A stretch of DNA of 64,000 nt from Savitreella phatthalungensis (taxonomy: Eukaryota), in contig AP039700.1 of NCBI GenBank assembly GCA_051599415.1, positions 310,001-374,000 on the forward strand, written 5' to 3'. Each line of letters starts with the position of its first letter. Position 1 is the stretch's first letter. Positions 2,011 through 21,103 of this stretch are shown here, in pieces. The notes beneath the pieces are model-generated. The model was given only the letters and a program-made list of their open reading frames with translations. It was not told the origin of the DNA and made no database searches. The position numbers and the translations under genes were made by a program.

Positions 2011-2299
2011 GAGATTCGTCCGGAATGCTAAATGTCGAGCTTCGGGTGTCTCTGATTTTCGAGTGTCCGGACTATGCTGACAACACAGCCCTGTATTGCT
2101 CGCCGGATCACATAGCTCCGCTTGTGCAACCTAAAAAGCTTCATCACATGTGATCGGACTGTGGCTCTTCACGGGAGAATTCTCCGAAAAGTGGAGGTGA
2201 TTGGTCGAAAATACTCTTTGCTCGAGCAGCTCCTACTGAATCCCTGTTACCTGGATTGAAAGCGACGGCAAAATTGAGGCAAGAACTGGTCTACCTCAT

Positions 2300-2900: not shown

Positions 2901-3859
2901 ATTGAAATTAATTAGGTATGAAGATGTTGACTTGGTCACAATATTAAAACAGCAGCTGAGGTCTACTGGCTCACCCGGTGGACCAGCCTGCCTGAAAAGC
3001 ATTGTGGTGAAGTTTCGGAATGTCGACAAGACAATCTTGCATTAGACATGGGTGAGCAGCGCAAACCTTAAGCTGTGTCGCGTGCAACAGACATATCTTG
3101 GCCACAGCACCGAGCCGGCGAAGGAGTGTACTGCGGTAGCACACGGGATCCCATACCGATACGTTCATATGTTGATATGTTTGGGCGCATGATCCAATGA
3201 GCCCGTGCTCGTCTTCAGACGAGACGATACTCACTCCGAGGACGGCATGCTGCACAATCAGGAATGAGATGGAGCCCCGCCAGGTGGGGAATAGGGGTGG
3301 AGCTCAAGAGCGAGAAACGCAATTAGTGTGGGTCGAGAATCTGAGATTATCATCTCTATGCATAGAACGCGATTGTATGGATTGATTGCAAAGTTGGCGA
3401 TGAGAGAGAATTGGGCAGAGGTGCTTGAGCCCTTTGCGCCGATCTCAAGTGTTTGCAAATCGAAATGGGCACTCCAGATCACTGACTTGACTTTCGCTCA
3501 TAGCAGGCAAAGGCATTTAGCGGATCGGTTGTGGTGGCAGCATAGCGCCGACAGACTCTTTCTTGTGGAGGCCTTGGCAAAGACCCATCTGTAGACGCTA
3601 TCATGGCTGCAGACGATGCATGCTTGTCCTGCTTGGATGACAGATAGAGGTATGCTCCAGGAAGACCACGAGGTCTGACCTGCTTGACCTAGAGCCACTC
3701 CATCACATTCTCGAGCCTATCCATCTCGTCCGAGAGCCTTTTCATCACGTCCCTCGAATATCCTGGACGGCAGGTAGATGCATTCTCGAGAGACCTGCAT
3801 CTGGTCATAGATTCATCTTGAAATCGCATATCTGACCAGGATCGGTATGATCGCCCGAC

Positions 3860-4076
3860 CCTTTTGTGGTGAAGTCACCAAATGCAGGAGGAATTCATCC
3901 GAGACGCTCCAGGAAATGACGTGCTAAGCGAGAATCCCGGGGATTCACCATTCGGAGAATTTATGCCTGTAAGCCACAATTTGATCGATTTTGCAGAAGC
4001 AAAGGCCCGACAGATCAGCTGAGTGGCATCCCGCACACCATTCACCTACAGGAGTTCCATGCAATCGGGCAAGCGA
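3860..4076 (+). repeat. Dispersed ~200-bp module, copy 1
   Basis: Core starts GTGCTAAGCGAGAA at 3921. 30-bp exact match GGCATCCCGCACACCATTCACCTACAGGAG at 4025-4054 and 9262-9291. Confidence 0.9.
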
Positions 4077-4464
4077 TCTATGGCTGGGGGGCAAAAGTTA
4101 GAGAGGCATCTCGAGATAGACAGATCCGAACGCAGATTCTAGAATGAACACAATAGCTATGGCGGTCTGATCTTGCATTGGGTCTACGAGCAGTTCCTCA
4201 ACTCATTCTATTTGACTCGCCCCTCGTCTATGATTTAAGGGTGCCCCTCAATCTTTCCGCCGAGTCTACACATAAATTAAAGTTTAATCATCAGATTTCA
4301 CATGTCAACGGTCATGAGCACCGTTACAAGATAGGCCTCATTGATGCACATGTTAGGCCTCATTGATGCACATGAACCTATGTTGGGAGAGGGCATATAT
4401 CCTCCATCTTTGCCCTTCCACACGCTCGACATAGGTCAGCTCTGCTATCAGCTTCTCGGCAAAC

Positions 4465-7400
4465 ATGGGCAAGAAGCGCAAATGGACCGGAGGCGATTCC
4501 GACGTTCCTCGACTCACCCGAAAACCATGTGCGGCGAGGCTCAAGCAGCTCAGAGATGTTCTCAGGGACGATGTAACGCAAGTCTTTGATGCGTTTGATC
4601 CAAGTGACGGGCCACTGGGCAAAAGGGATCTCGGCTTTATTTCACTGGTCATGGCCTCTTCGTCTGATTCACCGCGACCGTCATCTTCTCATCCACCGCC
4701 CTCGTCATCGCAACCACTCCAAGCAAGTCGCGAGGAACGCCTCGAGCGCTTTAGGGGTGAACTCCAAGTCGGCAGCGACGATCATCTGGACGAGAGACTG
4801 AAGGCCTCGCGAGCGAGGTACCCGAAGTCATGGAGCCTGATCGAGCAAGCTCGCACAAGATTGAGCGCTAAATTGATGCAGGTCAACAATGTCTGGGCAA
4901 CGCCGCTGCTCTATCTCATTGATTTGTACATCAACGAGGCACTCTCACACAACAGAGATCCGCTGATGTGGCGTCCGTCTAACCTGCCCTGTCTGGAAAG
5001 CGTCCTGGCGCTAGAACCGCGCCGTGGCATCGACTCATACATTCACGACGACTTGTTGGAGTTTATGCTGTGTTCCGATCGGCTCCAAACCTTTGGGGGT
5101 GAACGAGTCTCATCACGTCCGCGCCATGTCCATCTAGTCAGGAATCCAAACGAGGTCCAGCAATTCATCTTTGGGGTGTCGGAGGACGCGGCACTACAGA
5201 TTTACAGGGACATGGCGGACATGGACAGGCGAGCGTTTGGGAGGGGCGAACCGCCAGGGTGTACGTTCTCGGATCTGCGGGAGGAGTGCACAACGATTCT
5301 ATTCCCCCTGAATCCCACGACCCGGCACTGGGTTGCCGTCGTCGCGTCTCTGAGGTCTCCCCGACACGTCCTAGAGCTAGAGGGAGGCCCATGTGTGATT
5401 GAAGTCACAATCTTCGACTCCATCGGCGACAACAGCGCCTACAAAGATCGCATGGAGTTTGACATTGTGCAGCTCCTCACGCTGCTTGTCCGAAACAAGT
5501 CCTTATCGGTCACTCTCGACTGCGATGTGGATGTCAAAATCGAGTATGGCCGATGCTCCAAGCAACACAATGATGAGGACTGTGGCGTGCTGACCTCCGA
5601 CAACCTCCTTCGGCTAGACAACCTCCTTCGGCTAGAACGAGACGGGGAGCTCCCTCTGCCCATCACAGATCTGCCCATCACAGATCCCCATGAGATGCAA
5701 CTTCATGGTGAGGAACTTCGCTGGACCACCATGGGGGAGATACGCACAGCCTTCGAACGTCAAACCTTTGGGCCCTATGTCCGTCACCCTAAGAAGAAGC
5801 ACCAAAAGACCGCACGTCGCATTGCAGCTTTGGAGCAGGACCTAGACCGCATGACAGACACATCACCATCATTCGTGCCGCGAGTGCTGGCTTCCAAATC
5901 GAAAGATGATCTCTGCAGCTCGCGACAGAATCTGACACAGCTCGTTACAGACCACCTAGCGATCTCTGGAGGTGCTTCCACCTTTACATCAATCCTGAGG
6001 TCAGTCGAAGCCAGATGGGGCAAAGTCTTTGCCAAGCAGGAGGTCTCCCTGGCTGCGCTTGTGGAAGCACTGCTGGTTGCCTGCCCGGCGTCATTTGCAA
6101 AGAGCGGGAACAGCTGGGTCCTGCACGAAGCACCCGCAAGCTTCACAACAGCACAGGTCCGCCTGATTCAGCACCCGAGTCACGATGCGAGTCACGATGT
6201 CTACGGATCGGCCTCCCAGCACGATCGGCAGAACAAGTGTCACGACGACGACGTCTACGAATCGGCGTCCCACCATGATTGGCAGATCCCGTACGAGGAG
6301 ACACATCTTGTTGTTGCTGTATCGCGCAAGAGCCGTGGACACGTCAACGATCACGCGGTTGAGGCTCACAAGCGCAGACCCGGGCAGATCGAGGAGGCCT
6401 TCTATGCCAGATACTCCACCACCACCACCCAAGAACGACGCATCAAGGTCAAGGACTTTGCCCACCTCCAGCAAGTTCTAGAGAAGGGCAAGCTGGGCTG
6501 GTACTCTTTGCCGATCGAACCAGTGTCCAGCCGCGCAAGGTTTCTAGAGCGCAATGACCCTATCAACTCCGACTTCCTGAAGCTGCTCCAGGACGCCAAC
6601 AACTTTCCGGTGAGACACGACGTCAGGAGAAGCAAAATGCGTGAGCTTCTTCAGGAGAAGAACTGCTTGAATGTCCGTCTGGTCGCCACTGGATGGGACG
6701 GACTCTCGACGAATCCTGATACGTTCACTTGGCTCGTTGAGACGTTCAAGAACGTCAACTTTACGCTTACTCTGATCATCAGGGACAGCTCGATCCTTGA
6801 TCTCACCAGCTTTGGTCCGGGTACGCCCCATGGGTCAGGTCTGGATCACTCAGGTCTGACGCGCCACGACGGACTGAAAGATCTGACCTGGTTCAACTTC
6901 AGTATCAGGCATCTCGCCTCCCTGCGGAGTGGCATTCCGACAAGGCTGGACAGGGTGGAGGCTCATCACTTGCGCCTCCTACTGTACCTCTACAAGATCG
7001 ACTGTGCCAAGGCACTACAAGGGGTGATTGAGCGCGTTATCGGCTACAATGACAAAAGCTTCAAGCAGAAAGGCGAATCTCTCGGCTGCTATCTAGCGAG
7101 CACATGGACGCGCCTCGGCCTGGATCTGCCAACAGCCAACGATCGATCACCTGCCAACGATCGAGATGATCGAATTCCAACAGACGATCGATCTCTCGAT
7201 CGTGCAACAGACCGATGCGCAGCGCGAGAGGAGAGCACATACCTCTGTCCAGTATGTGACAAGGAAATGCCGCTTGTTGAGGCACGAGGTCATCTGGGAC
7301 GGCACATCGCATGCTCTGGCGATGGGAAGAAGTGTCCGGTCGCACTGTGCACTTACACTCTTCCAAAGTCGCATCGTCCGGTTATGCTGGCTCACATCAA

Positions 7401-8127
7401 GACACACGAGACCACTGCAGGCAAAAGTCGGCCAAGACTAGTCTGCGTTGACTGTGGTGCCTCCTTCAAGCACGAAAATCAGCTTGTTCAACATGCCGCA
7501 GTTCACAGAGGAGAGTACGTCTGCGATGACAGCGATTGCGGAGAAGTAGATCGCACCTTTGACAGACGCGGGCTGAAGGGGCACAGGAAGAGGATACATG
7601 GCCATCTGTACAAGCACCACAGTGCCTCAAACTACAATCTGCCATATATCTGCGGGCATTCAACCTGTCGAAAGGGGTTCAAAAGCCTGCACGCATTGCG
7701 AACGCACGATCGGCAGGGTCACAGACGTCATCAGACAAGAACGGTGCAAGACAACGACCATACGAATGAGGCTGTGGGTGAGGACACGAGTGGAGGTGCG
7801 CATGAGGCTGCGAGTGAGTACACGATTGAAGATGATCGAGACGCACTGGAGGTCGAAGATGAGAAAGACGCAATAGAAGACGATTACCACGAAGATGCAG
7901 TGGAAGTCGAAGACGACGCAGACGCACCCGAAGACGAAGACGACGAAGACGACGAAGACGCACCCGAAGACGAAGACGGACTCGAAGACGAAAACGACGA
8001 AGACGCACTCGAAGACGAGGAATGGAACTGGCCTTCAAGCTCTCCTGCACCACAGAGCGACGACAAGCTAAGTTTATGGCGCAGGCCGCCGGTGGCAAAG
8101 TTCTGCCCCTTCTCTATTCCCGTCTGA
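4465..8127 (+). CDS. ORF A: 1220-aa multidomain protein (Ulp1/C48-like protease, winged-helix-like segment, serine-recombinase-like segment, 5 C2H2 zinc fingers, acidic tail)
   Basis: Uninterrupted ATG-initiated 3.66-kb ORF. C48 motifs HW (H288), FDS (D318), QxNxxDCG (Q367, C373). Five CxxC/Cx4C...Hx3-4H fingers at aa ~928-1086 (nt ~7240-7722). D/E-rich tail. Confidence 0.85.
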   Translation: MGKKRKWTGGDSDVPRLTRKPCAARLKQLRDVLRDDVTQVFDAFDPSDGPLGKRDLGFISLVMASSSDSPRPSSSHPPPSSSQPLQASREERLERFRGELQVGSDDHLDERLKASRARYPKSWSLIEQARTRLSAKLMQVNNVWATPLLYLIDLYINEALSHNRDPLMWRPSNLPCLESVLALEPRRGIDSYIHDDLLEFMLCSDRLQTFGGERVSSRPRHVHLVRNPNEVQQFIFGVSEDAALQIYRDMADMDRRAFGRGEPPGCTFSDLREECTTILFPLNPTTRHWVAVVASLRSPRHVLELEGGPCVIEVTIFDSIGDNSAYKDRMEFDIVQLLTLLVRNKSLSVTLDCDVDVKIEYGRCSKQHNDEDCGVLTSDNLLRLDNLLRLERDGELPLPITDLPITDPHEMQLHGEELRWTTMGEIRTAFERQTFGPYVRHPKKKHQKTARRIAALEQDLDRMTDTSPSFVPRVLASKSKDDLCSSRQNLTQLVTDHLAISGGASTFTSILRSVEARWGKVFAKQEVSLAALVEALLVACPASFAKSGNSWVLHEAPASFTTAQVRLIQHPSHDASHDVYGSASQHDRQNKCHDDDVYESASHHDWQIPYEETHLVVAVSRKSRGHVNDHAVEAHKRRPGQIEEAFYARYSTTTTQERRIKVKDFAHLQQVLEKGKLGWYSLPIEPVSSRARFLERNDPINSDFLKLLQDANNFPVRHDVRRSKMRELLQEKNCLNVRLVATGWDGLSTNPDTFTWLVETFKNVNFTLTLIIRDSSILDLTSFGPGTPHGSGLDHSGLTRHDGLKDLTWFNFSIRHLASLRSGIPTRLDRVEAHHLRLLLYLYKIDCAKALQGVIERVIGYNDKSFKQKGESLGCYLASTWTRLGLDLPTANDRSPANDRDDRIPTDDRSLDRATDRCAAREESTYLCPVCDKEMPLVEARGHLGRHIACSGDGKKCPVALCTYTLPKSHRPVMLAHIKTHETTAGKSRPRLVCVDCGASFKHENQLVQHAAVHRGEYVCDDSDCGEVDRTFDRRGLKGHRKRIHGHLYKHHSASNYNLPYICGHSTCRKGFKSLHALRTHDRQGHRRHQTRTVQDNDHTNEAVGEDTSGGAHEAASEYTIEDDRDALEVEDEKDAIEDDYHEDAVEVEDDADAPEDEDDEDDEDAPEDEDGLEDENDEDALEDEEWNWPSSSPAPQSDDKLSLWRRPPVAKFCPFSIPV

Positions 8128-9313: not shown

Positions 9314-9626
9314 ATAACGATCGAGTGGAGAGAGTGGCAGAGAGAGTAACGAGGGTGATTCAATCTTGTTGTACGACGCAAACCTCGACGAAATTTGAGA
9401 GGCCGGTTTCTTGAGACTGGCGATCCTCGCGTCTTGCCGACTACACATGATACCCTCGGGAGCTCAACCACTATCGAGCGTGTTGTCCGATGCAATCCAT
9501 TGCTGAAGTAAAGTGCTGGGAGATAGAAGTAGTAAAGACGAAAACAGAGGAGCACGGCGGACAGAACTGTCACCCAACCGCTTTGACAGACGCACGTGAG
9601 AAGAGAAGAGAAAAAAGAAAAAAAAA

Positions 9627-9726
9627 TGCCTCCACCCGGATTTGAACCGGGGACCTTGTCGTCTCACATATTTTCTATGGCGAAAATTTTACAAGCGACA
9701 CGCCTTGACCACTGAGCTATAGAGGC
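9627..9726 (-). tRNA. tRNA-Thr(UGU) with intron
   Basis: Minus strand GCCTCTA TAGCTCAGTGG ... anticodon stem TGTCG/CGACA, loop CT-TGT-A, ~27-nt intron after position 37, T-arm GGTTCAAATCC, 3' TGGAGGC-A, followed by an oligo-T Pol III terminator. Confidence 0.95.
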
Positions 9727-10449
9727 TGGCGAAAAATCCGGAAATCGAAAGGGTCCGGGGATCTGCGATGGTAGGATCGCACAAGCGCCTTGTATATATA
9801 GAAACGGCTTGTGAAGGTGGCGTTCGAAATGGTACACAATCGGACCAAATTGCAATCCTTCGACTCTTGCGGGTCAATTGCGTTTGTCCTTGCTTGCTTG
9901 TTCTGGTTGAAATCTTCTCGAGTTTCTCAGCTGCGCAGTCATCATATGTCAACGACAAATCACATCAACCCAAGGACATCAATTTGGACGCGTCTCTGTG
10001 TATACCGCATTTCGCGTTGAAACTGGCACGTCGAGACACACGTCTCACGTCTGCCGGCTAATCCGTTCACCTAGCGGGTCTTCAACGAAATGTTCTTTTG
10101 CTCAGACATGGCTAATATGCGCAGAGCGACTCGAGGCTATCGAGACGATCTCCACTCCCTCTTCCAAATGTAGTATGTGTCAAAGTTCGAGCTTGTTGAG
10201 TATGATAGAAAGCTCATCGCGAAAAGTTGATGTTGTGATAGCAATGCCTCGCTTGAAAATCGCCCTCGAACGTTCAGCCGGACGTTATCGATGTGGTTCG
10301 ACCGGGATCGTGATCGGTTCATGGCACTTTGGTCTAACTTTGTCTTTGGAATCGGATCGGCCGGTCACATTATGTGGCTAAGACGGAATTTAGCACCTTC
10401 GACGTGTCCTTCTGCACCGACAAAACCGACGTCAAGTGTTGAGTGAATC

Positions 10450-11463
10450 TGTGCAGAAGGCCTGCTGACCGTTTTTGTCCGTCTCAAAGTCTGCAGGACC
10501 TACAGTTCTTGTGCAGCTCAGAGGACGTCATTTGGACGACAGAGGTTAGCGTGATGAAACGTGATGAGCTCTGCACTCTTCTGCCAAACTTGATGCGCCT
10601 TGTAGATTTCTACATCTTGCGTTCTCTGGCAACCCCTACTTTGGTCTTGATTGTGAAGTGGTAGGGAGCTAGTCGATGCAAATGATATGCCAAGTATGAT
10701 GTCTATCTGGCTGATCCTCTTGAAGCGTCTTTGGAAGCCTGACCGGCGTGATTTGAGAATTGCGGGAATTGGTGGCTTCTGCGAATTGCTTCCGCAAATT
10801 CGACGACGACATCGATCCACTTGATCAGAATCATAATGACGGGTTTTGGCTTCACAAGTTTGGGTTTGACAACTTGCTCGCCTACAACAAGAAGTCGTGC
10901 TTGGGGAATCTGACGTGCGATCAAGCGGCCGTCTGGAGGGAGAGCACTGGCCCGATGTTGGGATCAGCACTCTCATGATGAGTAGCAATCGCGGAGACGC
11001 CTTGACTCTCCATCATGATGTCCGAGTGGCGGAATCGGAGAAAGTCTTCAGGGACAGTAAGTGCGCCAAGTGTGGAAAGAGAGTATCTGGCCATCTGGCG
11101 AAAGTTGAACACGCGGTTGTCTGGCATGGATTGCTGGCTGTCCGCAGGCCTGCTGGCAACGTTGTGTTTCTCTTCGAGACAACGCTCAGGCAGGCACGCA
11201 AATCTGTACCGGCAGTGTCGCGAAGCAAAATCGCGCGATCAAAGACATCCACTATACGTCGGGTCCAAGGATACTTGCCAGCGTGCTTGGCGAAGCGCGT
11301 CCCCTTTTTCGGCAGAATTTTGGAGAAGTACCATCGACTACCGGATGAAGTAATGGTTTTCGACAGGATCGTTCTTTGTGTTGTCACAAGTCGCTACCAA
11401 GACGCCCGGAATGGCGACACCGGAACGCACTGTCCTGTCGTCATCCTGAGGCTGTCGGCGTGA
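10450..11463 (+). pseudogene. Degenerate gene B, copy 2, with a C2H2 finger
   Basis: CAKC-x12-H-x4-H (CAKCGKRVSGHLAKVEHAVVWH) near 11062-11128; coding-like fragments broken across frames; similar to 2300-2900. Confidence 0.45.
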
Positions 11464-12915
11464 CCAGAGTTTGGGAGCCCAAAGACAACTTTATTGGGCT
11501 GGAGGCTTGGTTGTCTCGATTGGGCGTGGCATGACGACACGGATGGCAACATAGGGGCGTAGAATCTGGGATATGTATACAGGGCGCCCGGAGAGGTGGA
11601 TTGATTCCTATGTAAATATCGGTCGCCATTGAATTGCCGCCTGCGGTGCAAAGTCGTAGGTTGAGACAGGACCGACGTTGTGTCCACTAGTGTCGTCACA
11701 GGTTGCTGCCATGGCGTCGAAGATGTCGGCGCCAATCAAAACACGTGCACTACAGAGGCAATCTATCAGGACATACCCATTGTCCCGGACCTGCCCAGCA
11801 TAGTCCGGATCAGGTGCTGAAATTGATCGAATGATCCATGACACCATGTATCGGCCGGCCAAATGGCTTGAGTGCTGGGCGCGGCCTGGCCTGTAAGACG
11901 GTGAAAGCTGCCTGAAATCAGGCGGCCACCTTCGAGATCCAGTTCGAGTGTTGACCCATGTTTATTGAGAAGCCTCCAATTTGTACAATGTTGACCTGGT
12001 TGTGACGAATTTGACCCGGGTTCAACTTCGACTGGTGGCTCATGGCACTGCCTTCAAGTGGGGAGGTTCAGATCCAGCTTGCGGGCTAAAAAACTGACTC
12101 AGCGGTATCAATAGCCGCGCAAGCTCAGACTTCACTGACTATTCACTGTTTACAACAACCCGTTAATTTTGATTTCAAAATTCAACACGAAGACGGGAAC
12201 ATCTGCGACTGGGACCTCCGGGGTTGGCAAGTTGGGAAGTTCACATCGATGCATTAGACAAAATGATGCCTAATAGAGGGCGAAGGAATGCCGGCTAAAA
12301 GAGTTTGGTCGTGCCGGCCGCCCATGCGCGCTGCTTTCGCGGGCACATCGAATCATAGCCCCGTCCTGCAACGATGATAGATATAAACATTCATCGGTAA
12401 AATCCTCGATACCGGGAACTTCGAATCTGGTCATTTCGCTTATTCATCGTGCGTGCTGATTTTGCGATGATGTCATCAATGCAAGGAATTATCCCGCGGT
12501 GCTCAAGCGTACATCGTGCTAAGCGAGAAATCTGAATGTTCCACCATTCGGAGAATTTGTGCTTGCAAGCCACAATCCGATCAAATTCAAAGGATCAGGT
12601 TCCCAACGGACAAACTCTGCGGCATCCCGCGCACCATTTATCCATGGAAAGTCCAGGAGAATCTGCGAGCAAATCAAATGTTGGGGTTTTGGGCAATCTC
12701 AGATATGATCTGTGGGCGCATGATGTCGCGTGATGCATTTATTCCCTGACTTGACTAGAATTGACTGGAATCTTGTTACGTCAGACTTGCCTTCGACTCC
12801 CCATGGAATCACATATGTGTATATATAGGAACAGAAATGTGCAGCAATATGGATCGGATACCTGTCACTTCAAATTTCGTCGTCGTCGTCGTCGTCTCTT
12901 TGTGCACAAGCAGTC

Positions 12916-13578
12916 ATGCCCAAGAAGCGTACAGCGCTTTCTGATGGCGAGGAGCAATCCAACAAGCGACGCGATAGCTCCCCGAAGGAGCTCTCCATGC
13001 CCAAGAAGCGTACAGCGCTTTCTGACGGCCAGGAGCAATCCAACAAGCGACGTGACATCTCTCTGAAGGAGGCTACTCGGATGTTCAAGTGCGCGGCCGG
13101 CTCATATGACCTTAACAGCAATCTGACTGAGGGCAAGCGGAACTTCATTGAAACAGCGTTGGCACTGGATCTGCCCTCCTCAGATTCGGCCAGACCATCA
13201 TCGTCGAATCCTCAACCACCAAACACAGCCACTGGACTAAAGTCAGTCAAGTCTCGCACAATTCGGGAGACGACTTCAGGAGCAGAGCAGCAAGACGCAA
13301 ATTGATCGGCTCTACAGTCCTGCAGACAACCTGACGCACTGATCACGGACCACTTGGCCATCTGTGACGGATCCTCTACCTTCGGGTCAATCCTGAAGTC
13401 AGTAGAAGTCCGATGGCATCATTGGTTCGTCAAGAACAAGAAGTGCGAGCATACTTCTCCAAGCGCTACTGAGAGCTTGTCAAGCGTCGTTCCAGGAGGT
13501 CGAAGGACGATGTCCCTTACGTCAGATGCCTGCTACTTTCTCGACAACGCACATTGCTTCTGTTCACGAACCAGAGAC
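12916..13578 (+). pseudogene. Truncated, frameshifted paralog of ORF A (left arm)
   Basis: MPKKR start (duplicated 81 bp), SSDSARPSSSNP, frameshift then stop at 13305, then LITDHLAICDGSSTFGSILKSVEVRW matching ORF A LVTDHLAISGGASTFTSILRSVEARW. Confidence 0.8.
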
Positions 13579-14287
13579 CGTTGCCGTGATCGGCTCTGAC
13601 AGCTTCTATGGCAAGATAGGTCTTGTCTGGATCGTGAGTCGCAGCAATCTGCTCTGTCGTGAAAGTAGCAGGCATCTGACGTAAGACATATCGTCCTTCG
13701 ACCTCCTGGAACGACGCTCGACAAGCTCTCAGTAGCGCTTGGAGAAGTATGCTTGGGCACTTCTTGTTCTTGACGAACCAATGATGCCATCGGGCTTCTA
13801 CTGACCCAAAGGTAGAGGATCCGCCACACATGGCTAGGTGGTCCGTGATCAGCTGCACCAGGTTGTCTGCAGGACTGAAGAGCCGATCTGTTTGTGTCTT
13901 GCTGCTCTCCTTGCGCGCTTTCTGATCTTGTACTTTGCTCTCCTCCTGCAGTCGTCTCCTGAACTGTGCGAGGTTTGACTGTCTTTGACCCAGATTGAGT
14001 GTGTTTGGTCGAGGATTTGATGACGGTCGAGGATTTGATGACGACCATCCAGGATTCGATGGCGACGGTGGAGGATTCGACGACGATGGTCCTGCCGAAT
14101 CTGAGGAGGGCAGGTCAAGTGCCAACACTCTTTCAATGAAGTTCCGCTTGCCCTCAGTCAGATTGCTGTTAAGGTCATATGAGCCGGCCGCGCGCTTGAA
14201 GATCCGAGTAGCCTCCTTCAGAGAGATGTCACGTCGCTTGTTGGATTGCTCCTGGCCGTCAGAAAGCGCTGTACGCTTCTTGGGCAT
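13517..14287 (-). CDS. Short paralog of ORF A (N-terminus + winged-helix-like segment only), open frame; may be a pseudogene
   Basis: ATG of MPKKR at 14287 (ORF track starts 14332). NLVQLITDHLAMCGGSSTFGSVEARW..ALLRACRASF..PATFTTEQI matches ORF A aa ~489-565. Lacks the protease, recombinase-like and zinc-finger parts. Confidence 0.55.
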   Translation of the reverse strand: MPKKRTALSDGQEQSNKRRDISLKEATRIFKRAAGSYDLNSNLTEGKRNFIERVLALDLPSSDSAGPSSSNPPPSPSNPGWSSSNPRPSSNPRPNTLNLGQRQSNLAQFRRRLQEESKVQDQKARKESSKTQTDRLFSPADNLVQLITDHLAMCGGSSTFGSVEARWHHWFVKNKKCPSILLQALLRACRASFQEVEGRYVLRQMPATFTTEQIAATHDPDKTYLAIEAVRADHGNGLWFVNRSNVRCRESSRHLT

Positions 14288-15699
14288 GATTGCTTGTGCA
14301 CAAAGAGCTGATGATGACGACGACGACGACATTTGAAATGATACGGTCTCCTATCCATATATAGTGATGCACATTACTGTTCCTATGTGATATCATGTGA
14401 GGAGTCGAAGGCAAGTTAGACGGGTACCTGCATATGGTTAACGAGATTCCAGTCAATTCTAGTCAAAGTCAAAGAATAAATGCATCACGCGACATCATAC
14501 AACCACAGCTGATATCTGAGACTGGCCAGGTCTCAATGTTTGATTGTTCGCGCTTTCACACAAGAGCCATGAATTGCTTGCAGAGTCTCCTGAACTTTCC
14601 ACAGGGGAATGGCGCGCGGGATGCTGCAGAGCTTGTCCGTTTGCAACCTGATTCTTTGAATTTGATCGGATTGTGGCTTGCAAGCACAAATTCTCCGAAT
14701 GGTGGAATATTCAGAATTCTCGCTTAGCAAGATGTGCTCTCGCGCGGCGCAAGACAATTCTCCTGCATCGATGAGATCACCACAAATTTTAGCCAGCACG
14801 ATGAATGAAGGGGACTAACGGGACTTGAATTTCCCTGCATCGGGGATTTTACCGCATAAGCTGGGGTAATAACAGCTAGTCGTCTGGAGGTAGCAAAATT
14901 CAAACCATCATCAGACGTACGATTTATCCCTACCGCTATTGCTTGAGTATCGTACGCAATCTTGGGCTTAGCTTCAGTCCTACGCAATCTCGGGCTTCCC
15001 TTCAGTCATTGGAGTGCTCATTGATGTCATGGCTTTTCGATCGGCGGTCCTGGCGGATCTACTACTCCAAAAGTCACGCATGCGCCGTGTATGTGTGGAG
15101 AGCGGGTCTGTGAAAGCTTCCGTAAGTTCTGGACTCGGCTGCAGGTCTGGATCTGATGGATGTTGATGTTTACCATCGTTGCAGGTCGGGGCTATGATTC
15201 GATGTGCCTGCCAAACCATCGCGCATTTGCGGCCGGCACGAACGCCCAAAACTTTTTAGCCGGTTTCCCGCCGCCCTCTATCGTGCATCATTTTGTCCAA
15301 TCCATAGATGTGAGCTTCCCAATTTGTCAAACCCAGTCCCCAGTCTCCGGTCCCCGGTCCTTGAGGTCGAGCTCTAAAGGGAAACACATGGGCCACACCA
15401 GACCTTGTTTTCCTTCCGTAACTGAACTTGCACTTTGACTGCTGGTTCAGACTCACTTAGCACATCAGACTTCACAGACTAGTTCTGTAGCCTGGTTCCA
15501 TTCCTTCTTCCTTTGCTTTTCCCCCAGCTGTCTGTGATCGAGTCAGATACAAGTCTGTGTTCGAGTGAGACGGCACATGGAGAATGCCACATCATCACGA
15601 GTTGAAAGCGCGCTTCCCTAAGTCAGAGGGTTCATCGGGTTTCCCCGCCGTGGAGCGGTCCTACGGTGTGATCAAGCGCTCTGACAGCAAACACTTGAG

Positions 15700-18209: not shown

Positions 18210-19637
18210 ATGCTTGCTCTGGCGGCAGTCGATGTAGCAACAAATAGACCAAATGCTAGCATCAGCTCAGGCGCTACACGCCGGCGAGCGCTGCCGTACT
18301 ACATGGGCGGCACTAGCGGGATGTCTGAACGGAGCACAATCACTGCTGCAGACCGACAGGCCATGAGCTGCCGCCCAAATTGCCTGAGTGTGCCGTGGGT
18401 GCATGGGCCCGAAAGCGTTCCAGGGTACGGCCACGAGGACAACAGCTTCAAGCCACTCCTCTACGCCCTCGTTGCCAGACCTCCTCGATCTTCACACCCA
18501 AAGTCGGACCCGTCAACAGGCGTCGAGTCGTCTGGCAGCTCGACACACAGCACAGGCTCACGTGGCGGACCGAGGGCAGCGACCTCCACAGGCACGATCA
18601 CAGTTCCCAAAAGCGTGAAAAAGTCGGCGGTGTTCGCGCTCGAGTGTCCGACCTTTGGCGAGCAATTTGTGTTTGGGCCTGGCGTTGGTGTTGACGGGGA
18701 CGGGCTTGTGCGTGGCGGGTACGCTGCCAGCGGGCGACACCTGCGCCGGATGGTGGAGTCGTCGTTCGGAATGTATCGCGAGCGTCTCCCGAACACATGG
18801 GGCGCGCCAGGAATTCACCCAGGAGGAGGAGCAGCAGCAGCAGCAGCAGCAGCACCCCTCTCCACAGACACTCACTCGCAGCACTCCTCCCTTTACCGAA
18901 CCGCACTCGAGATCCCATCCCCCGGATCACCCGTCTGCACGGTCGATCGCCCCCGCAGACCGCGCGTCAACATTCGACAGAAGGACCCGAGTGTGCGGGT
19001 GACGTTGCCGCGGTCAGGTGCTGTGGTGGAGGTGGTAGTCTGCCGTGGCGGATACTGCTCGTTCAGGGTGCCCGGATCGCTTCTCGGTGGTGGCAAGGAT
19101 GGTCAGGTGGAGTACACGTGGCAGCTGCGGTGGCTCGAGCCGATCGGCGGGACATCCATCTCGTCGTCTGTGTCTCGGGACCCGCCACGGCTCAGGGACG
19201 CCGTCTTGCGGAAGCAGGGTGAGAAGGCCATTGCCTGGTACATCCCCACAAAAGATCCCCTCATCCGTGATCACCAGGAACCAGACATCCTACACCGCCC
19301 GTCACCCTCAGGTCGCAGCACCCCAATCCCAAGAATCACCTCGTCGAGCTCACTCCGAGGACAATTCTCCCAGGCCGGCGTCACCATCGATAGAGAGTCC
19401 TCGAGGAGCGCACGCTCCGGTGGAGACCGTACACCAGAGTACGATCACGCCTCATACCAGCTCGGCACGCTTGTCTCCCGACTCGATCTCTCACCAATCG
19501 ACCGGGAGCTGACTGTGAGCACGTTCGGAGCAATCTACGGAAGGGTGGTCGGTGCAGTGACGAGCGGAGTCGATCTCGCTGGCCTCGAGAGCATGCTCTT
19601 GTCTGGTCACAAGCTGGCCGGTATGTCGTGGCGGTGA
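18210..19637 (+). CDS. Hypothetical protein, 475 aa
   Basis: ATG-initiated 1.4-kb ORF after a pyrimidine-rich leader, with a TATAAA at ~18056. Ser/Gly-rich linkers and beta-rich segments; family not recognised. Confidence 0.75.
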   Translation: MLALAAVDVATNRPNASISSGATRRRALPYYMGGTSGMSERSTITAADRQAMSCRPNCLSVPWVHGPESVPGYGHEDNSFKPLLYALVARPPRSSHPKSDPSTGVESSGSSTHSTGSRGGPRAATSTGTITVPKSVKKSAVFALECPTFGEQFVFGPGVGVDGDGLVRGGYAASGRHLRRMVESSFGMYRERLPNTWGAPGIHPGGGAAAAAAAAPLSTDTHSQHSSLYRTALEIPSPGSPVCTVDRPRRPRVNIRQKDPSVRVTLPRSGAVVEVVVCRGGYCSFRVPGSLLGGGKDGQVEYTWQLRWLEPIGGTSISSSVSRDPPRLRDAVLRKQGEKAIAWYIPTKDPLIRDHQEPDILHRPSPSGRSTPIPRITSSSSLRGQFSQAGVTIDRESSRSARSGGDRTPEYDHASYQLGTLVSRLDLSPIDRELTVSTFGAIYGRVVGAVTSGVDLAGLESMLLSGHKLAGMSWR

Positions 19638-21103
19638 TGCGACGAGCGGAGTTGATCTCGCTGGCCTCGAGAATATGCTCTTGTCTGGTCACAAGCTGGC
19701 CGGTATGTCGTGGCGGTGATGCGACGAGCGGAGTTGATCTCGCTGGCCTCGAGAGCATGCTCTTGTCTGGTCACAAGTTGGCTGGTATGTCGTGGCGGTA
19801 ATGCGGCGAGCAGTAGGCCGAATCGCATATTACCAGAGTGTAAATTTCCAATATCTTCCACAGTTGATATGGTGAGCACATCTGTGGCAATTCTCCGGAA
19901 CGCCACGGGCGCTGTTACGAGCGGTGTGAATCTCCCTAGTGTACAGAAAATGCTCCTGTCTGGTCACAAGCTGGCTGGTATGTCGGGGCGGTGATGCGAC
20001 GAGCGGAGTTGATCTCGCTGGCCTCGAAAATATGCTCTTGTCTGGTCACAAGCTGGCTGGTAAGTCGTGGCGATGACCGCGATTTATGGGAGGGCGGCGA
20101 GAGCGGTTTCGAGCAGCGTCAGTCTTGCTGGCCTTGAAGAATCTGCTCGTCTGATCGCAAGCTCGCCTGAATGTCATGGCGGTAGTACGATGATCTGTGG
20201 GTCAGATCGCGCGATAGAGTACGTGGTGTCGTACTTGGGGACGCGGCGTCGATTCCCGCACCCTCGCACCCACCGAATACGAACTCTGATCGCTCACGGT
20301 CTCCCACGACAAGGCACGTTTGGTGCGGGCAACGGGCAGGTTGCCTGTGCAGTAACGAGCGACGTCAACCTCGCTGGTCTCAATGACATGCTCATATTCG
20401 GCTACATGCCCGCCCATATGTCGTGGCAATAGCGTGAGTCATAGAGCAATTCGGAATAACAGATTGCGACGATTCAGTATCCCCCATATCTGACAATGAT
20501 TACATCGCCGGCGACTCCTTGAAGGGCCATGGCAGCAGTCACGAGCGGTGTCGATCTTGCTGATCTGGGAAGTATGCTTCTGTCTGCTCACAAGCTAGCC
20601 TGGATGTCATTAAATGAGAGACTCGATCGCCGACGGTCTCCCACGAGAAGGGGCACGTTTGATGCCGTTTGCGGACAGGTTGTGAGTGCAGTGACGATCG
20701 GCGTCAATCTCGTCCGGAGAGCAGCCTCTCGTCCCGCCGCAAGCTCGCCTGGGATGTCATAATGGTAGTGCGACGACCAAGGGGTCCAGACCGTGAGTTG
20801 GGGGTAAGCACATGCAGGGAAATTTACGAGTGGGTCACCGGTGCAATGGCGAGCGCCGTCACTCTCGCTGGTCTGCCGCAGATGATGCTCTTGCCCGTCG
20901 CATCCTGGCTCATGTGTGGTGGCGTTAGCGTGATGAGCGATAGAGCAGATCGCGAGACAGAGGAATCTCACAGACGGTCACCACATCTGGTGCGCTTTCC
21001 CGGCGAGTCATAGGAGCAGTCATGAGCGGCGCCAGTCTCGAGACGTTGGTCCGCAGAGCGTCGTCTCGTCTGCTCACAAGCTCGCCTGGATGTCATGGGG
21101 GTA
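19559..21103 (+). repeat. Array of 11 copies (gene end + 10 downstream copies) of the 3' end of the 475-aa ORF
   Basis: Core GACGAGCGG..GATCTCGCTGGCCTCGAGA..TGCTCTTGTCTGGTCACAAGCTGGC..ATGTCGTGGCGG-stop at about 19559, 19641, 19723, 19916, 19998, 20109, 20354, 20540, 20693, 20847 and 21021. Confidence 0.92.

Follow-up and report, generated by a model that had tools for sequence, protein, structure and literature searches.

A conserved alpha/beta domain, possibly a diverged relative of the serine recombinase catalytic domain, in a Ulp1-containing protein of Savitreella phatthalungensis

As far as PMC2715888 and PMC3627910 go, eukaryotic serine recombinases (SRs) are known only as sequence-recognisable IS607-type genes, with six genes described in Saccharomyces (Lachancea) kluyveri (PMC2715888) and Fanzor2/IS607-like elements in protists and giant viruses (PMC3627910). 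Some of the yeast copies carry catalytic substitutions, including Arg-to-Thr in motif C (PMC2715888). According to PMC2794168, mutations of Y6, R8, S10, D36, R68 and R71 in Tn3 resolvase abolished recombination and lowered cleavage about 10^3-fold or more, and D67 is not essential. Ulp1 proteases are reported to occur repeatedly in DNA transposons, as passengers or as fused domains, namely in Ginger1 and Mutator (PMC2836005) and in CryptonF and CryptonS (PMC3212892). Here, a gene of the fungus Savitreella phatthalungensis, designated open reading frame A (ORF A), is described, in which a Ulp1 domain is followed by an alpha/beta domain that may be related to the SR catalytic domain. The gene is located in a stretch of 64,000 nucleotides (nt) of contig AP039700.1 (assembly GCA_051599415.1, positions 310,001 to 374,000 of the forward strand), hereafter the window, and all positions refer to this stretch.

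The reading preferred here, tentatively and at somewhat less than an even chance, is that the alpha/beta domain is resolvase-like but very diverged and non-canonical, with catalysis most likely absent or altered, and that it belongs to a multi-copy family of transposon-like character. The gene, the core of the domain and the motif strings that an earlier note on this DNA had singled out are as follows.

4465-8127, plus strand: ORF A, 1220 amino acids (aa), uninterrupted and intronless
6307-6783, plus strand: conserved alpha/beta core, the candidate resolvase-fold domain, aa 615-773, about 160-170 aa
6307-6336, plus strand: LVVAVSRKSR, with S623, in the frame of ORF A
6325-6336, plus strand: R621-K-S623-R624, with R, S and R invariant in all three family members, after the first strand
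6400-6432, plus strand: FYARYSTTTTQ, with S651, at the end of the predicted helix 34-55 of the model
6517-6534, plus strand: EPVSSR, with E, P, S, S and R invariant in all three members, directly after strand b2
6673-6714, plus strand: VRLVATGWDGLSTN, in the frame of ORF A
6691-6711, plus strand: GWDGLST, with G, W, D, G and the final T invariant in all three members, directly after strand b3

The strings and residue numbers quoted in the earlier note are all present in ORF A, in frame and in place. The search of aa 560-910 with phmmer against 1,835,955,588 representative proteins retrieved only two at E ≤ 0.001. The first (P0002) is a hypothetical protein of 314 aa from Savitreella phatthalungensis (Taphrinales), with 65 % identity over about 295 aa (E 1.3e-97) and, by tblastn against the window, 58 % over 308 aligned positions. 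The second (P0003) is a hypothetical protein of 1627 aa from Zasmidium cellare (Dothideomycetes), with about 29-30 % identity (E 6.9e-4). It shows the same domain order as ORF A, Ulp1 and then the alpha/beta domain, and pairwise BLASTP between the two proteins gave E 4e-7 for the Ulp1 part and E 7e-12 for the alpha/beta domain (aa 647-783).

No further member was obtained. The profile of a three-way alignment of the ORF A segment, P0002 and P0003 (alignment A1) found nothing beyond these two among longer and near-length proteins, and a word-indexed search of aa 590-900 among near-length proteins gave 2112 candidates, none at E ≤ 0.001. Pattern scans followed by tblastn returned 196 pattern matches in metagenome contigs, 54 in prokaryote genome contigs and 63 in viral contigs, with none confirmed. 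The core gave no tblastn match at E ≤ 10 in plasmids and two in phages (E 0.8-2), both hypothetical proteins and not resolvases, and the ESM Atlas search gave no usable match. The similar Mucorales proteins mentioned in the earlier note appeared in none of these searches, the homologues being confined to Savitreella and Zasmidium. The domain is nevertheless a real and conserved one, of a tiny family that is so far known from three fungal proteins.

The invariant columns of A1 include R26, S28, R29, E90, P91, S93, S94, R95, G148, W149, D150, G151 and T154 in the numbering of the structure model, to which 595 is added to obtain the ORF A residue number. Four invariant clusters were observed, R621/S623/R624, E685-P-x-S-S-R690-x-x-F-L, V-x-L-x-x-x-G743-W-D-G-x-x-T749 and N-F-x-x-T. 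The motifs R-x-S-R, EPxSSR and GWDGxxT are real family features, because they are conserved in both homologues found; to this extent the resolvase-like motif set proposed earlier stands, while its match to the SR consensus is at chance level. S651, first proposed as the nucleophile, was rejected, since its motif lies at the C-terminal end of a helix and not after a strand, and R649 is replaced by Asn in the Zasmidium protein. The alternative first strand, LVVAVSRKS with S623, fared better: R621 and S623 are invariant in all three members, and the structural alignment starts given below put R-x-S on the nucleophile motif. The replacement of both arginines of DRLxR was likewise confirmed (D745-G746-L-S-T749), with G and T invariant in all three members. 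Homologues that conserve neither RxS motif had been named as grounds for abandoning the proposal; R621-x-S623 is kept in both.

The fold was predicted with AlphaFold2. From the single sequence the model was poor, with a mean predicted local distance difference test score (pLDDT) of 35.4. With A1 as input, the predicted template modelling score was 0.58 and the best mean pLDDT 54.4 (five models, 51.6-54.4), with block means of about 58-84 in the core, model residues ~15-178. The predicted order of elements is strand-helix-strand-helix-strand-helix-strand, in detail:

b1, model residues 20-26 (LVVAVSR)
helix, 34-55
helix, 70-78
b2, 83-89 (WYSLPIE)
helix, 104-118
helix, 129-134, within 21 aa that are inserted ahead of b3 and missing from P0002
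b3, 140-147
helix, 156-165
b4, 169-178 (NFTLTLIIR), followed by a low-confidence loop
b5, 212-218, followed by low-confidence helices

The possibility that the segment is an unfolded linker or low-complexity region, with motifs that are chance strings in a fast-evolving ORF, is hardly credible. The poor single-sequence model and the ESM Atlas result agree with it, but the identity to P0002, the significant Zasmidium match with its blocks of invariant residues, and the regular alternation of strands and helices (block means up to 84) in the model made with the alignment do not, and on the grounds of conservation this explanation appears largely refuted.

Structural neighbours were sought with VIA-align, independently of Foldseek, over 48,161 representative chains of the PDB. 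Among the best 50 rows, 11 are SR catalytic domains by title, with six in the top nine, and when the best 1000 chains of Foldseek were realigned by the same approach (pdb_via, 995 aligned), SRs occupied six of the top eight rows. Seven of the entries listed below were confirmed as SRs by phmmer with Gin. The rows are given below with Z score, root-mean-square deviation (rmsd) and number of aligned residues.

9dxd, serine integrase: Z 6.0, rmsd 4.1 Å, 127 aligned
9iu2, Bxb1: Z 6.0, rmsd 4.0 Å, 112 aligned
3guv, resolvase family: Z 5.6, rmsd 3.7 Å, 115 aligned
3bvp, TP901-1: Z 5.4, rmsd 4.9 Å, 119 aligned
2mhc, TnpX: Z 5.2, rmsd 4.4 Å, 112 aligned
3g13, conjugative transposon recombinase: Z 5.0, rmsd 5.3 Å, 120 aligned
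2rsl, gamma-delta resolvase: Z 4.6, rmsd 3.6 Å, 100 aligned
4bqq, phiC31: Z 4.6, rmsd 6.0 Å, 131 aligned
6dgb, IS607-like: Z 4.6, rmsd 3.7 Å, 95 aligned
5c31, Sin: Z 4.5, rmsd 5.4 Å, 116 aligned
5cy1, Tn3 resolvase: Z 4.3, rmsd 5.3 Å, 111 aligned
3lhk, title uninformative and beyond the 11 SR rows: Z 5.0, rmsd 3.8 Å, 103 aligned

The best available structural evidence, although weak, favours a fold like that of the resolvases, in which R621-x-S623 takes the nucleophile position; this is considered partly supported. It is also quite possible, though doubtful and placed second to the resolvase-like reading, that the segment is a generic flavodoxin- or Rossmann-like three-layer alpha/beta domain unrelated to SRs, whose likeness comes from a common arrangement of strands and helices; its function could be, for example, the binding of a nucleotide or phosphate ligand or of a partner protein for the Ulp1 domain. 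Many alpha/beta enzymes have conserved residues where strands 1 and 3 end on their C-terminal side. Such an unrelated domain would not lead one to expect that about a dozen SR entries head a search of 48,161 chains rich in flavodoxin-like and Rossmann-like domains. Foldseek, on the other hand, preferred other Rossmann-like folds. It gave nothing at E ≤ 0.001 against the PDB or BFVD, and among PDB ranks 1-50 no SR was listed, the top being thiamin pyrophosphokinase, CARF/Csm6 and KaiC; in BFVD, just two rows carry the name SR or resolvase (ranks 27 and 37, E 0.14-0.16) and one is named "Integrase" (rank 45, E 0.19).

Several other results weigh against the resolvase-like reading and in favour of an unrelated domain, since every sequence and profile test for SRs was negative. 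The Pfam family PF00239 was missing from the lists for ORF A and for aa 596-860 at E ≤ 10, and from those for P0002 and P0003 at E ≤ 1 (gathering score 23.3 bits; the positive control, Gin of phage Mu, scored 170.1 bits), so that no significant profile match to the family was obtained. A hidden Markov model (HMM) of the SR domain, built from the catalytic domains of Gin and ten diverse phage serine recombinases and integrases (n = 11), was run with all filters off and gave 0.0 bits for the window segment and 0.6 bits for the Zasmidium homologue, with P0002 not listed at E ≤ 1000. The comparison of A1 with the SR alignment by hhalign gave a probability of 0.5-0.7 % and only 12-16 confidently aligned columns. 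Against 177,635 PDB sequences the A1 profile had no match at E ≤ 10, and phmmer of aa 596-900 against PDB sequences had only two, both at E > 1 and to a V-ATPase subunit. PHROGs and NCBIfam listed no resolvase family, the sole row being one PHROG of function unknown (E 0.22). The model itself rests on three sequences, two of them 64 % identical; half of its residues are below pLDDT 50, those of the helices after model residue 219 being mostly so, and no long helix E was modelled with confidence. The profile similarity to PF00239 that the earlier note had proposed as a check was detected by no HMM or profile-profile method; on structural similarity, its other check, the outcome was mixed, with SRs heading the VIA-align lists and none among the PDB rows listed by Foldseek. 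A homodimer prediction of aa 610-885 scored 0.00, with the alignment unused and the fold uncertain, and is not evidence either way.

The register on the resolvase active site was read from alignment end positions, not from residue-level output. Model residue 19 starts at chain residue 1 of 2rsl, 5cy1 and 9iu2, residue 20 at 1 of 5c31, residue 21 at 2 of 3uj3 and residue 19 at 3 of 3bvp. These six alignments place the invariant R-x-S on the SR nucleophile motif, a further point that an unrelated domain does not account for. If the first strand is ungapped, R621 and S623 would fall on R8 and S10 of Tn3 and gamma-delta resolvase (numbering of PMC2794168), and likewise on R7/S9 of Gin and R8/S10 of Bxb1-type integrases. 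R-L-S-R is also how this motif reads in the integrase of phage KBG, which is Bxb1-like. The same R-x-S correspondence presumably holds for Sin and TP901-1, by the residue numbers that we assume for them. A greedy hhalign alignment also sets RKS on RVS, without significance. In this register R621/S623 would provide motif A, R8-x-S10 after strand 1.

By their spacing from strand 3, D745 would occupy the position of SR D67, G746 that of R68 and T749 that of R71. Invariant residues thus stand exactly at D67, +1 and +4, which speaks for the resolvase-like reading and not for an unrelated domain. By spacing from strand 2, E685..S688-S689 resembles D36..S39-G40 of SRs, and E685 may be a stand-in for D36. 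The position of Y6 is V, V and C in the three members, so that no Tyr6 equivalent is conserved; the combination of Tyr6 and Asp36 was not found, nor was motif C (D67-R68-x-x-R71), its place being taken by G and T in all three members. Three of the six crucial SR residues of PMC2794168 are absent, which favours an unrelated domain, and only R8 and S10 have identical counterparts; these results too count against a resolvase-like catalytic segment. The canonical SR active site is absent, because equivalents of Y6, R68 and R71 are not kept, and either the other invariant arginines, R624 and R690, would substitute for them or the domain would be non-catalytic. Of the serine recombinase-like catalytic segment that had been proposed, the weak structural neighbours and the conserved R-x-S remain, and the sequence signal and motif C do not.

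In the resolvase-like reading, the domain would retain Arg-x-Ser of the first strand (R621, S623) as well as D745, the acidic residue that follows strand 3, and would have lost the Tyr6 equivalent and both phosphate-activating arginines of motif C, now G746 and T749. The flanking DNA-binding modules would bring it to DNA, where it might cut strands in a serine-mediated reaction that is slow or altered. More probably, because the arginines are missing, it would act there as a non-catalytic synapsis or oligomerisation module.

ORF A starts with a basic N-terminus, continues with the Ulp1/C48 protease, a module of about 95 aa, the alpha/beta domain and a helical extension, and ends with five C2H2-pattern fingers that precede an acidic repeat tail; it has the look of a large nuclear protein. 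Its remaining parts are:

5284-5595, plus strand: Ulp1/Peptidase_C48 catalytic domain (Pfam PF02902), aa 274-377
5890-6177, plus strand: ~95-aa module, aa 476-571, common to the paralogue fragments of the window
6883-7113, plus strand: conserved, mostly helical extension, aa 807-883, shared by both homologues, with a low-confidence model
7246-7722, plus strand: five C2H2-pattern zinc fingers, aa 928-1086, by regular expression match
7839-8027, plus strand: 27-nt tandem repeats, six overlapping copies, encoding the acidic D/E-rich tail

The Ulp1 domain was recognised by Pfam with E 2.9e-5 and 24.4 bits (gathering cut-off, 20.7 bits). Its motifs RHW (from aa 287), FDSIGD (aa 317) and KQHNDEDCG (aa 366) are aligned with their counterparts in P0003, and we take them to hold the His, Asp and Gln-Cys catalytic residues of Ulp1. 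On the score and the motifs, the N-terminal domain is assigned to Ulp1 as an intact-looking, putative deSUMOylase domain. A perfect 18-nt tandem duplication is located just after it (5599-5634), giving the repeated peptide DNLLRL-DNLLRL. The ~95-aa module may be a winged helix; the sole hint is a weak TFIIE_beta match (E 0.075) at aa 936-961 of P0003, between its Ulp1 and alpha/beta domains. The finger matches in Pfam are weak and below cut-off (zf-C2H2_jaz, E 0.0017; zf-C2H2, E 0.1), and C2H2-pattern fingers are absent from the Zasmidium homologue.

The family of ORF A is lineage-restricted and present in multiple copies in the genome, with only one full-length copy visible in the window. Its repeated features are:

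13517-14332, minus strand: paralogue fragment of 271 aa with the ~95-aa module only, without the Ulp1 and alpha/beta domains
13339-13615, plus strand: mirror copy of the ~95-aa module
10494-10829, plus strand: decayed copy of the ~95-aa module
12220-15334: palindrome with arms of about 1 kb (12220-13217 and 15334-14067), 80-95 % identical
3843-4119, plus strand: ~280-nt non-coding module, copy 1, 346 nt upstream of the ORF A start codon
9081-9359 (plus), 12441-12694 (plus) and 14807-14550 (minus): further copies of the ~280-nt module
2102-2246, minus strand: weak copy of the ~280-nt module

The ~95-aa module occurs four times between 2 and 15 kb of the window, and its copy at 13906-13628 (minus), in the 271-aa fragment, is 46 % identical to ORF A (E 2e-20). 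Within the palindrome are two mirrored partial paralogue copies of ORF A, the ORFs 12916-13305 (plus) and 13517-14332 (minus). The centre of the palindrome (~13620) is exactly where the alpha/beta domain would begin, and the second copy ends there; the last 16 conserved residues of this copy match the first 16 of the Savitreella protein at 15 of 16 positions. The ~280-nt module was found by nhmmer in four copies at E ≤ 1e-76 and one weak copy at E 1e-8. It precedes three family ORF starts by about 220-350 nt, and the decayed copy 10494-10829 by about 1.1 kb. Its copies share a reading frame, PPFGEF..SHN.I.F, interrupted by stops; a coding exon was rejected, the conserved frame having stops in copy 1 and there being no shared ORF. 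Directly downstream of one module copy, Rfam indicates a tRNA of 100 nt (9627-9726, minus, 52 bits), probably intron-containing; ARAGORN with bacterial settings found none in 9400-9900.

The ORF A family could plausibly derive from a transposon, because it has several copies, which share the ~280-nt upstream module, and because Ulp1 domains are found repeatedly in DNA transposons. A much bolder view, considered unlikely, is that ORF A and its two relatives form a new eukaryotic SR branch, in which the catalytic domain is combined with a Ulp1 deSUMOylase and DNA-binding modules and has a rewired but competent active site, R624 and R690 taking over from R68 and R71 beside R621/S623. ORF A would then be an active transposase or recombinase and would drive the excision, inversion or transposition of a fungal mobile element of a new kind, with the ~280-nt modules as recombination sites. 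The direct module pair 3843/9081, which flanks ORF A, and the inverted pair 12441/14807, which flanks the palindrome, would then have to be such sites, and this is just as improbable. For an active element speak the multiple copies with a flanking module in direct and inverted orientation, the patchy distribution over Taphrinales and Dothideomycetes, the conserved R-x-S-R with the extra invariant arginines, the transposon association of Ulp1 (PMC2836005, PMC3212892) and the existence of IS607-type SRs in yeasts and other eukaryotic elements (PMC2715888, PMC3627910). However, the position of the module is the one expected of a duplicated promoter or 5' region, paralogue copies in the window are without the domain, and in the data of PMC2794168 mutation of R68 or R71 slows cleavage by Tn3 resolvase at least 10^3-fold. 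Around ORF A no element termini were found, the candidate terminal inverted repeats being chance matches of 9-10 nt only, and there were no target-site duplications and no evidence of excision or inversion. The missing inverted repeats and target-site duplications also count against the resolvase-like reading with its transposon-like family.

The large neighbouring ORFs are ordinary fungal genes (LCAT-type acyltransferase, GPAT, PI-PLC, UCH protease, TFIID subunit, P450 and GH1), and therefore the eukaryotic, fungal setting holds. The sequencing runs listed number three, all of DNA and from a single study, with no RNA run among them. Tandem or dispersed direct repeats of about 80-185 nt with 82-93 % identity are clustered at 19545-20076, around and past the 3' end of ORF 18210-19637 (475 aa, without a Pfam family), and weaker repeats follow at 20146-21103.

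With respect to significance, a fungal SR, which the earlier note had considered notable, would not be without precedent given the IS607-type genes of a yeast, but one invisible to sequence comparison and with this architecture would be. A relative of the SRs at fold level only, fused to a SUMO protease and zinc fingers and belonging to a multi-copy fungal family, would extend the superfamily and would hint at a new class of transposons or at a new way in which transposons become domesticated, with a natural architecture resembling zinc-finger recombinases. An unrelated alpha/beta fold would make it an orphan domain of a lineage-restricted gene family, of local interest only.

With the SR catalytic domain (PF00239), the domain of ORF A shares the predicted succession b1-helix-b2-helix-b3-helix-b4-(b5)-helices, an Arg-x-Ser(-Arg) that is invariant and follows immediately on b1, a conserved Ser-containing segment after b2 and an invariant Asp three residues after b3. 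It differs in having no detectable sequence or profile similarity to the SR catalytic domains of gamma-delta and Tn3 resolvase, Gin, Sin, Bxb1, phiC31 and TP901-1, in the extra helix between b1 and b2 and the insertion before b3, and in its position inside a eukaryotic protein of 1220 aa, whereas the domain is N-terminal in resolvases and integrases and C-terminal in the IS607 type. The de novo designs 2l69 and 2mr5, examples of generic flavodoxin-like or P-loop-like alpha/beta sandwiches, are functionless and have no counterparts of R-x-S-R, EPxSSR or GWDG..T. Transposons with Ulp1 would resemble ORF A in that a repeated element combines the protease domain with a recombinase or transposase, either fused or encoded alongside, but they have DDE transposases or tyrosine recombinases and defined termini, and ORF A has neither of these enzyme domains by Pfam. 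The eukaryotic IS607 SR genes resemble the ORF A family in their eukaryotic setting, their multiple copies and, for some yeast copies, the substitution of catalytic residues; they are sequence-recognisable (27-31 % identity to bacterial SRs), small and provided with an N-terminal DNA-binding domain, in contrast to the ORF A family, which no sequence method recognises and whose architecture is different.

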